IMG/VR virus record: IMGVR_UViG_3300027983_002389
Strand: one strand, 5' to 3'
DNA: 64,000 nucleotides
Source of the DNA: a virus
Lineage: Duplodnaviria; Caudoviricetes
The notes under the pieces were generated by a model. It was not told the origin of the DNA. It did no database searches and saw only the letters and a program-made list of their open reading frames with translations. A program made the position numbers and the translations under genes. Positions 38,296 to 38,680 of this stretch are shown here, piece after piece. How positions within the stretch are numbered: the stretch's first letter is position 1; each line of letters opens with the position of its first letter.

Positions 38296-38324
38296 TTTAC
38301 AAGTCGAAAGACTTGTGGTATAAT
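38296..38324 (+). promoter_or_regulatory. promoter TTTACA-N17-TATAAT for leader and tRNA array
   Basis: motif match with extended -10 TG. Confidence 0.75.
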
Positions 38325-38338
38325 ACTGAAGTTCGATT

Positions 38339-38410
38339 AACAACACAACACAACACAACACAACACAACACAACACAACACAACACAACACAACACAACA
38401 CAACACAACA
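38339..38410 (+). repeat. (CAACA)n microsatellite
   Basis: about 14 perfect units. Confidence 0.95.
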
Positions 38411-38435
38411 CGGCTCGTTGCCGTAATCAGGAGAC

Positions 38436-38570
38436 ATGACAATGTTCGTTCAAATCACCAATATCGGTCGCTGGCATAATGGGCAACAAGTCCAGCCGCA
38501 GACAAAGTGCGCCCCCGCAGTGCGCACTTTCGTCGCCAATAAAGGTAATGAAGATACATTGCCTTCCTGA
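38436..38570 (+). CDS. putative 44-aa leader peptide
   Basis: AGGAG RBS; MTMFVQITNIGRWHNGQQVQPQTKCAPAVRTFVANKGNEDTLPS*; stop lies within attenuator segment 1. Confidence 0.6.
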   Translation: MTMFVQITNIGRWHNGQQVQPQTKCAPAVRTFVANKGNEDTLPS

Positions 38571-38630
38571 CCGAACCATACAAGTTCGGCTCAGGATACC
38601 TGAGTCGGACTGAAACAATAAAGTTTCAGC

Positions 38631-38667
38631 AAAAACCCACTCAGGTAAAAACCTGAGTGGGTTTTTT
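38631..38667 (+). terminator. intrinsic terminator (attenuator)
   Basis: CCCACTCAGGT-AAAA-ACCTGAGTGGG followed by T6. Confidence 0.9.
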
Positions 38668-38680
38668 GTTGGATTTTTAT

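Follow-up and report, generated by a model that had tools for sequence, protein, structure and literature searches.

A candidate leader-peptide attenuator inside the tRNA region of an uncultured giant phage

The locus and its transcription

The stretch of DNA examined here, hereafter the window, comprises 64,000 nucleotides of the IMG/VR virus record IMGVR_UViG_3300027983_002389 (Duplodnaviria; Caudoviricetes), and its source is an uncultured giant phage with a genome of roughly 460 kb. Nearly all genes of the window lie on the plus strand, and its NAD-dependent ligase has only ~30% identity to known phage proteins. ARAGORN and Rfam place more than 40 tRNA or tRNA-like genes in the window from ~35.4 kb onwards, and among them, between tRNA-Met (38221–38295) and tRNA-Gln, sits the subject of this report: a compact unit composed of a promoter, a 5' untranslated region (5'UTR), a Shine-Dalgarno (SD) sequence, a short open reading frame (ORF), a chain of complementary segments and an intrinsic terminator (Table 1), which we consider here as a candidate leader-peptide attenuator. 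These elements are real, non-random and conserved. Relatives of the unit occur on contigs of 316 kb (L004) and 340 kb (L001, from IMG/VR) and on four sediment contigs (L009–L012), and a further locus (L007) is identical to the window; contigs on record with the leader protein reach lengths of 462 kb.

Table 1. Positions of the features of the unit and of the first gene behind it
Feature	Position	Strand	Description
Promoter	38296–38324	+	TTTACA 38296–38301, 17-nt spacer, TG 38316–38317, TATAAT 38319–38324; 11/12 match
(ACAAC)14.4 microsatellite	38340–38411	+	5'UTR; TRF, 100% perfect; G-free, unstructured
5' stem-loop	38410–38424	+	5 bp, loop UCGUU, just 5' of the SD; in every fold; stem invariant, loop variable
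SD region, UCAGGAG	38427–38433	+	AGGAG 38429–38433; candidate segment A, being complementary to segment 1 in its 5' half
Leader ORF	38442–38570	+	42 codons and UGA; AGGAG 8 nt before the ATG
Alternative segment A, UCGGUCG	38464–38470	+	codons 8–10; can pair with UGACCGA (38568–38574) in segment 1
ORF-internal hairpin	38504–38530	+	9-bp perfect stem in the window; inverted repeat
Hairpin 0	38542–38565	+	9 bp, codons 34–41; in all folds; within the invariant core 38532–38597
Segment 1 (B)	38565–38576	+	holds the stop codon 38568–38570; pairs with segment 2; invariant
Segment 2 (C)	38584–38596	+	pairs with segment 1 or segment 3; invariant
Segment 3 (D)	38597–38610	+	partner of segment 2 (-18 kcal/mol) or of the 5' arm of the terminator
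Small hairpin	38610–38629	+	7 bp; inside helix 3:4, or alone in the terminator state; stem invariant, indels in the loop only
Intrinsic terminator	38631–38667	+	A-tract 38631–38635, segment 4 (E) 38636–38646, loop 38647–38650, segment 5 (F) 38651–38661, T6 38662–38667
tRNA-Gln(CUG)	38681–38756	+	first gene past the terminator; ARAGORN and Rfam

Because tRNA or tRNA-like genes are also found upstream of the unit (at 35462–36600, 38135 and 38221, by ARAGORN and Rfam), it lies inside the tRNA region and not at its head. An initial annotation of this DNA had the unit controlling the tRNA array; this has to be given up in favour of a narrower role, in which only the downstream block would be gated. 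That block, after tRNA-Gln, holds ~30 tRNA genes and several ORFs up to the next promoter of the same family at 50223.

The promoter directly adjoins the 3' end of tRNA-Met at 38295, exactly where the initial annotation had placed it, and transcription is predicted to start near 38330–38332. By its sequence it is a strong, early-type promoter with a sigma-70-like -35 and an extended -10 element; the combination of -35, TGn and -10 is also the build of the strong T4 early promoters, which are read by the host sigma-70 polymerase (PMC2988021). It belongs to a family of the form TTTACA-N17-TAnAAT, mostly with GTGGTA before the -10, that counts eight exact copies, all on the plus strand, against 0.05 expected, and ten copies when a looser -10 is allowed. 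Family members at 35422 and 50223 stand directly 5' of tRNA or tRNA-like genes, and one sits before the gene of the phage's own sigma factor (26377–27039). In the relatives the promoter is kept and varies only at position 3 of the -10, the least critical one (TATAAT, TACAAT or TAGAAT).

Several local peculiarities accompany this promoter family. The spacer of the promoter at 38296 coincides with a hairpin (38299–38316), and other promoters of the family are also A-rich at the spacer centre; this hairpin and another at 38196–38209 both carry a GAAA tetraloop and lie immediately 3' of the two tRNA-Met genes. At 35324–35450 a family promoter is doubled within a direct repeat of ~98 bp, the second copy being 11 nt before the tRNA-like gene at 35462. 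A terminator-like hairpin of 11 bp at 22897–22941 (AAAAAACGTGG ... CCACGTTTTTT) overlaps another family member, the promoter at 22884, in its spacer and -10, in what looks like a terminator and a promoter on the same DNA.

Is there a second promoter that could serve the tRNA genes from behind the terminator? None of the family was found between 38325 and 50222 (11.9 kb scanned), nor did promoter scans reveal a further one downstream in L001 or L004, and just one other TATAAT occurs between the terminator and 52 kb, at 45623. Since the family is missing from these 11.9 kb and only 14 nt separate the end of the T-tract from the start of tRNA-Gln, the downstream tRNAs seem to be dependent on read-through: barring an unrecognised type of promoter, ~30 tRNA genes and several ORFs seem to depend on polymerases that pass 38631–38667. 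A k-mer search for a second class of promoters yielded only words from tRNA T arms.

A short transcript bounded by a strong promoter and a strong terminator, and behind it a long operon that has no promoter, would equally suit a temporal switch governed by a protein factor. In that case the immediate-early RNA would end at 38667, and the tRNA genes would be reached later, by means of a phage antiterminator or of a terminator-insensitive or modified RNA polymerase. The tRNAs of T4 are middle genes that are reached in part by extension of early transcripts (PMC2988021), and the presence of a phage sigma factor fits such a scheme. No Q-, N- or put-like element was recognised, however, and a partial match to boxA (UUAACAA) in the 5'UTR of the window was rejected as a nut-like element because the relatives are without it. 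A factor-dependent switch would also leave unexplained the stop codon in segment 1, the graded chain of helices and the covariation of helix 3:4 described below, and we regard it as quite improbable.

The most conspicuous feature of the 5'UTR is the perfect microsatellite, which the initial annotation had listed, as (CAACA)n, among the elements of the attenuator. It is present as described and identical in a second sample (L007), but it is specific to this lineage: L001, L004 and L009–L012 all lack it and have 9–12 CA-rich bases in its place. The repeat is therefore not part of the conserved device, and its possible roles within a conserved mechanism, as a translation enhancer, a Rho loading site or a decoy for ACA-cutting toxins or RNA-binding proteins, were rejected on the same ground. 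Microsatellites made of C and A only, and thus G-free, are found in 5'UTRs shortly before AGGAG at three places of the window: (CAAA)9 at 31521–31556 before the ORF at 31596, (ACACTC)8 at 36759–36807 before the ORF at 36824, and (ACAAC)14 before the leader ORF. All three may function as unstructured enhancers of translation or as sites where Rho is loaded.

The leader reading frame and its competing helices

The AGGAG and the ORF of 44 codons (38436–38570) described in the initial annotation are both in place, and this longer version of the ORF uses 19 of the 20 amino acids, with Tyr missing. Its start, however, needs correction. L004 has lost the in-frame ATG at 38436, and gene callers predict 42–43 amino acids; the conserved ORF therefore has 42–43 codons counted from 38442, and this second ATG is most likely the true start. 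The SD of L004 is weaker (AAGGGA). On other contigs the leader protein has been called with 42–43 amino acids and 88–100% identity, and the reading frame is kept in four lineages, with start and stop conserved and a single in-frame indel of 3 nt. The codon-usage log-odds of the leader (0.097) lies within the range of real genes and is reached by 0.3% of off-frame windows. The peptide has no relative in Pfam, PHROG or ESM-Atlas. From the conserved frame and its codon usage we infer that the leader ORF is translated.

The amino-acid content of the leader bears some relation to the tRNAs behind it. Among its 41 residues, 34 are amino acids served by tRNAs located between the terminator and 43.9 kb, compared with 68% in the proteins of this phage (p ~0.03), a match that is weak because the downstream block covers 13 amino acids. 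The leader is enriched in Gln, Asn and Thr and depleted in Leu and Ser, besides having no Tyr; tRNAs for the last three were not found in the window.

The RNA of the leader is strongly structured, with a fold z-score of -8.4 to -8.8 against shuffles. Segments 1 to 4 read as they were quoted in the initial annotation, where segment 3 was delimited as 38598–38608, and successive segments can form helices of graded stability: 1:2 with -16.4 kcal/mol (12 bp and one bulged C), 2:3 with -18.0, 3:4 together with its inner hairpin with -19.6, and 4:5 with -20.0. As inverted repeats, 2:3 extends over 13 nt with 85% identity, 3:4 over 12 nt with 92% (38597–38608/38636–38647) and 4:5 over 16 nt with 100%. 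The terminator thus formed has a 16-bp stem with seven G-C pairs and is the strongest of the window. Helix 3:4 consists of 9 bp, a mismatch and 2 bp, occupies 10 of the 11 nt of the terminator 5' arm and excludes the terminator; this antiterminator helix belongs to the minimum free energy (MFE) structure of the nascent RNA.

Segment 1 has an additional partner further upstream. With 38464–38470 it forms a consensus helix of seven pairs in RNAalifold, in which one G·U has become A-U in L009 and which belongs to the MFE structure of L004; in the full-length MFE structures of the window and L001 it is instead the SD (38427–38432) that pairs with segment 1. The extra partner extends the unit to a chain of six segments, in which A:B, C:D and E:F stand against B:C and D:E. 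The ORF-internal hairpin at 38504–38530 may be a pause or stability element.

We read this arrangement as a ribosome-mediated attenuator, of the kind known from his and trp, that would gate read-through into the main downstream block of phage tRNAs, and we believe and doubt this reading in about equal measure. An RNA starting near 38331 would carry the 42-codon ORF with its stop codon inside segment 1. The terminating set of pairings would comprise A:B (the SD or 38464–38470 with segment 1), C:D (2:3) and E:F (the terminator); the set allowing read-through would comprise B:C (1:2) and D:E (3:4), the latter tying up the 5' arm of the terminator. A ribosome that reaches the stop would cover segment 1, which would leave 2:3 and the terminator to form and transcription to end at 38667. 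A ribosome slowed or stalled within the ORF would cover A and leave segment 1 free, so that 1:2 and 3:4 would form and the polymerase would read through into tRNA-Gln and beyond. Kinetic coupling and regulated read-through are what we infer from the modelling described in the next section.

Folding, conservation and rival explanations

When the RNA is folded from codon 31 with segment 5 not yet made, hairpin 0, 1:2 and 3:4 form in the window, L004 and L001 alike, and masking the site of a ribosome at the stop flips all three to 2:3 with the terminator arm free. With the whole leader folded, the mask brings about the same switch in the window, L001 and L009, but not in L004, whose energies lie close together. 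To pass from the 3:4 state to the terminator, a barrier of 10.7–14.2 kcal/mol has to be overcome, which by a rough Arrhenius estimate would correspond to seconds, slower than the termination window. Such behaviour is seldom seen in dinucleotide shuffles of the upstream 104 nt: at least 10 of the 11 nt of the terminator 5' arm are sequestered in 2% of them, and sequestration combined with release under the ribosome mask is found in 0.55%.

The initial annotation had proposed co-transcriptional folding as a check, and a crude, barrier-limited heuristic model of this process agreed with it in large part. With continuous translation to the stop the terminator formed in 12/12 runs for all variants, and with queues of stalled ribosomes the antiterminator formed in most runs (19/24) but not in all, L001 being the weakest case; this variant has a stronger terminator and is the least switch-like. 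The further claim that missing translation leads to read-through turned out to depend on the model. Given the extra upstream partner of segment 1 (38427–38432 or 38464–38470), an untranslated leader may terminate, as in his and trp superattenuation, and read-through would need ribosomes stalled within the ORF, not just the absence of translation.

Conservation is distributed very unevenly along the unit. Variable sites amount to 9/45 nt in the 5'UTR without the repeat, 8/42 nt and an indel in the middle of the ORF (codons 17–30) and 7/38 nt and indels in the terminator; the core at 38532–38597 has none in 66 nt, compared with ~13% elsewhere in the unit. This core consists of the last 12 codons, with zero synonymous change, and of segments 1 and 2 with the spacer between them. 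Residues 22 and 30, the most variable of the peptide, covary in such a way that the hairpin at 38504–38530 is kept (AAG/UUC, AUU/AUU and ACG/GUC across the window, L004 and L001), which makes these changes compensatory at the level of RNA. The invariant core and the compensatory amino-acid changes thus indicate that selection acts on the RNA; as judged from these alignments it is strong, and the reading frame is kept too. Outside this group little was found: a search of GenBank phage DNA with 38100–39000 returned tRNA matches only and no relative of the leader, the 2:3 hairpin had no match when viral contigs were scanned for its exact pattern, scans with the neighbouring proteins led back to the same small clade, and the distant loci L002 and L003 have no comparable unit.

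Could the RNA act without being translated? An untranslated riboregulator would use the 66-nt core to bind a ligand, a protein or an RNA, possibly a tRNA, and thereby choose between 1:2 with 3:4 and 2:3 with the terminator. The very stable fold (z -8.4), the invariance of the core at the nucleotide level and the preservation of RNA stems by the substitutions in the ORF are all what such an element would lead one to expect. It would give no reason for the conservation of SD, start, stop and frame, including an indel that stays in frame, or for a codon usage like that of real genes, and no Rfam family, T-box included, is matched at threshold. We consider it very improbable.

Covariation offers a separate line of evidence on the helices. 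The terminator shows four compensatory pairs among the relatives, and three more (38638/38659, 38639/38658 and 38635/38662) appear in metatranscriptome and glacier metagenome contigs. Helix 3:4 has two, 38598/38646 (A38598 to G) and 38605/38639 (U38605 to C), the second of which also turns a G·U of helix 2:3 into G-C. One relative is represented in an RNA library by a contig of 227 nt, which spans 38481–38700 and thus crosses the terminator into tRNA-Gln; it is a weak hint that the leader is abundant and sometimes read through, weak because its depth is 2.3 and it is without a silent control stretch. Taken together, the mutually exclusive chain with the stop codon in segment 1, as first proposed in the initial annotation, is supported in silico by energies, shuffles, conservation, gene-like codons, some covariation and the lack of a promoter behind the terminator; one pair of helix 3:4, 38603/38641, is broken by an A·C mismatch in three of the four relatives.

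Another explanation would be an early unit complete in itself, either the gene of a small protein or a stable leader RNA, driven by a promoter of its own and closed by a terminator that is constitutive and somewhat leaky. The role of the additional hairpins would then be to stabilise the RNA, the alternative pairings would be by-products of duplicated arms, and the tRNAs would be transcribed by leak-through or from unrecognised promoters. The set of promoter, SD, ORF and terminator is indeed complete, the codon usage is gene-like and the peptide is 88–93% conserved. Segments 3 and 5 form a 91% direct repeat, and the palindrome CTCAGG-loop-CCTGAG has two occurrences in the 64 kb, both within the unit (in hairpin 2:3 and in the terminator), as expected from duplication of a hairpin; a dispersed palindromic repeat was rejected as the source of this motif, which is confined to the unit. 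At equilibrium, moreover, helix 1:2 can coexist with the terminator. What such a unit would not account for is the position of the stop codon precisely inside the segment complementary to the next hairpin arm, the scarcity of switch behaviour among shuffles, the covariation of residues 22 and 30 for an RNA stem and not for a property of the peptide, and the lack of synonymous change in the last 12 codons; nor does it sit well with the failure to find a promoter for ~30 downstream tRNAs or with a peptide that has no known family. We consider this explanation unlikely.

Several points nevertheless weigh against the attenuator itself. The kinetics come entirely from our own crude model, which without a ribosome gives either outcome depending on the threshold, and in which the L001 variant is often terminated even when the ribosome stalls at codon 30 or 36; in an earlier version, read-through resulted for the window with a ribosome lagging 60 nt, that version being unreliable because it started from 120 nt of unfolded RNA and hid the 3' arm of the terminator. 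All relatives are close (88–93%), which limits the power of the conservation argument. Helices 1:2 and 2:3 draw no support from covariation because they are invariant, apart from one change of G·U to G-C, and helix 3:4 contains the broken pair noted above. Both compensatory pairs of 3:4 could have come from a single template switch between the near-repeats 38598–38608 and 38651–38661, so its covariation is suggestive and not strong. The leader has no run of regulatory codons and fits the downstream tRNA set only weakly. Promoters of other types may exist downstream; the phage encodes a sigma factor of its own. Finally, the 72-nt repeat of the window, C-rich and G-free, looks like a site of Rho loading by the published description of rut sites (PMC2988021), and could oppose read-through when translation fails.

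What would such an attenuator be for? To our knowledge the control of phage tRNA genes has hardly been studied, and our literature searches found no published attenuator in front of tRNA genes. We tentatively suggest, as a rather doubtful extension of the attenuator reading, that the unit is a putative sensor of elongation that boosts ~30 tRNA genes as decoding slows, for instance upon degradation of host tRNAs or their cleavage by anticodon nucleases during infection, and that it represents one of a widespread, undescribed class of such elements before phage tRNA arrays. Phage tRNAs are known to rescue infection from tRNA-cutting defences, among them PARIS, retron Eco7 and other anticodon nucleases (PMC10264068, PMC11464382, PMC11555353). 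If the suggestion holds, tRNA supply would be coupled directly to the speed of ribosomes through a feedback loop assembled from the parts of classical attenuation, and the tRNAs produced would themselves restore translation. The reach of attenuation would then widen to include viruses and a new class of target genes, and the unit would provide a compact, testable sensor of ~340 nt, whose sigma-70-like promoter and canonical SD suit reporter tests.

The neighbourhood of the unit has peculiarities of its own. Upstream, several long tRNA-like genes with inserts lie at 35462–36600, recognised by T-arm words and one Rfam match, and the tRNA-Met(CAU)-like gene at 38135–38193 has a D arm ~12 nt shorter than in the intact copies of L004 (2749–2820) and L001 (6460–6531); Rfam gives it 40.5 bits and ARAGORN misses it. 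Between tRNA-Gln and tRNA-Lys, at 38776–38819, there is a mini-ORF of 12 codons (GGAG followed by ATGATGATG), whose N-terminal part (MM.. ..RYK) is shared with L001 and L004, the remainder being different; no terminator was seen behind it. An ORF for an HNH endonuclease at 38985–39479 (PHROG 2255, E 1e-27), in whose place L001 and L004 have a second tRNA-Lys, is probably a mobile insertion in the tRNA region. In the middle of the tRNA block, the ORF at 42477–43127 matches class I tRNA synthetases for Trp and Tyr (Pfam PF00579, E 7e-25) and, with 216 amino acids, falls short of the usual length of a complete enzyme. At 43857–43927 a 16-nt unit (TTCCTTTCAGGCACAC), present in three perfect copies, is followed directly by an 8-bp terminator-like hairpin and a T-tract, and this may mark the end of the transcription unit begun at 38296.

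Relation to known leader systems

Searches of Rfam with the unit gave nothing at threshold; the scores were 28.1 bits against the required 49 for His_leader (RF00514), 29.8 against 59 for the trpB motif and 32.2 against 49 for rli38. These sub-threshold matches, and others to microRNAs, were set aside since they align mainly to the terminator hairpin. The T-box model has no match on 38296–38700, even at E values up to 10.

The likeness to established systems lies in the layout. In the lambda PR'-6S RNA-tR' arrangement with Q, and in the passage from immediate-early to delayed-early transcription in T4, a strong early-type promoter likewise produces a short RNA that ends at a terminator, and a long operon follows. 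Those systems need a protein factor or relief from Rho and have no leader ORF with competing helices, whereas no element for such a factor was found in the phage unit. The pyrBI leader (pyrL) has an ORF of about the same length (44 codons), and whether its terminator forms is determined by a tightly coupled ribosome; the sense of the response is the opposite, as a close ribosome prevents termination in pyrL and a ribosome at the stop would promote it in the phage.

Closest in architecture are the classical enterobacterial leaders of his (hisL), trpL, leuL, thrL, ilvL and pheL, in which a short promoter-proximal ORF is likewise followed by an intrinsic terminator; the his leader also has six overlapping segments that pair as A:B, C:D and E:F or as B:C and D:E. 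In these leaders a ribosome at the stop favours the terminator set and a ribosome stalled in the ORF the antiterminator set, as is predicted here; for the general mechanism see PMC1183508. The phage leader differs in having 42 codons, 19 amino acids and no run of a single codon, in the ambiguous outcome of the model when translation is missing, and in its targets, which would be tRNA genes and not genes of amino-acid biosynthesis. In the breadth of its supposed signal it resembles the bmrB-bmrCD, vmlR and msrD leaders, which also combine a leader ORF with alternative structures and a terminator, and in which ribosomes slowed or stalled at any amino acid cause read-through (PMC4191407, PMC9226507). 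Their signals are antibiotics and their targets are resistance genes of Firmicutes, whereas the output of the phage unit would be tRNAs.

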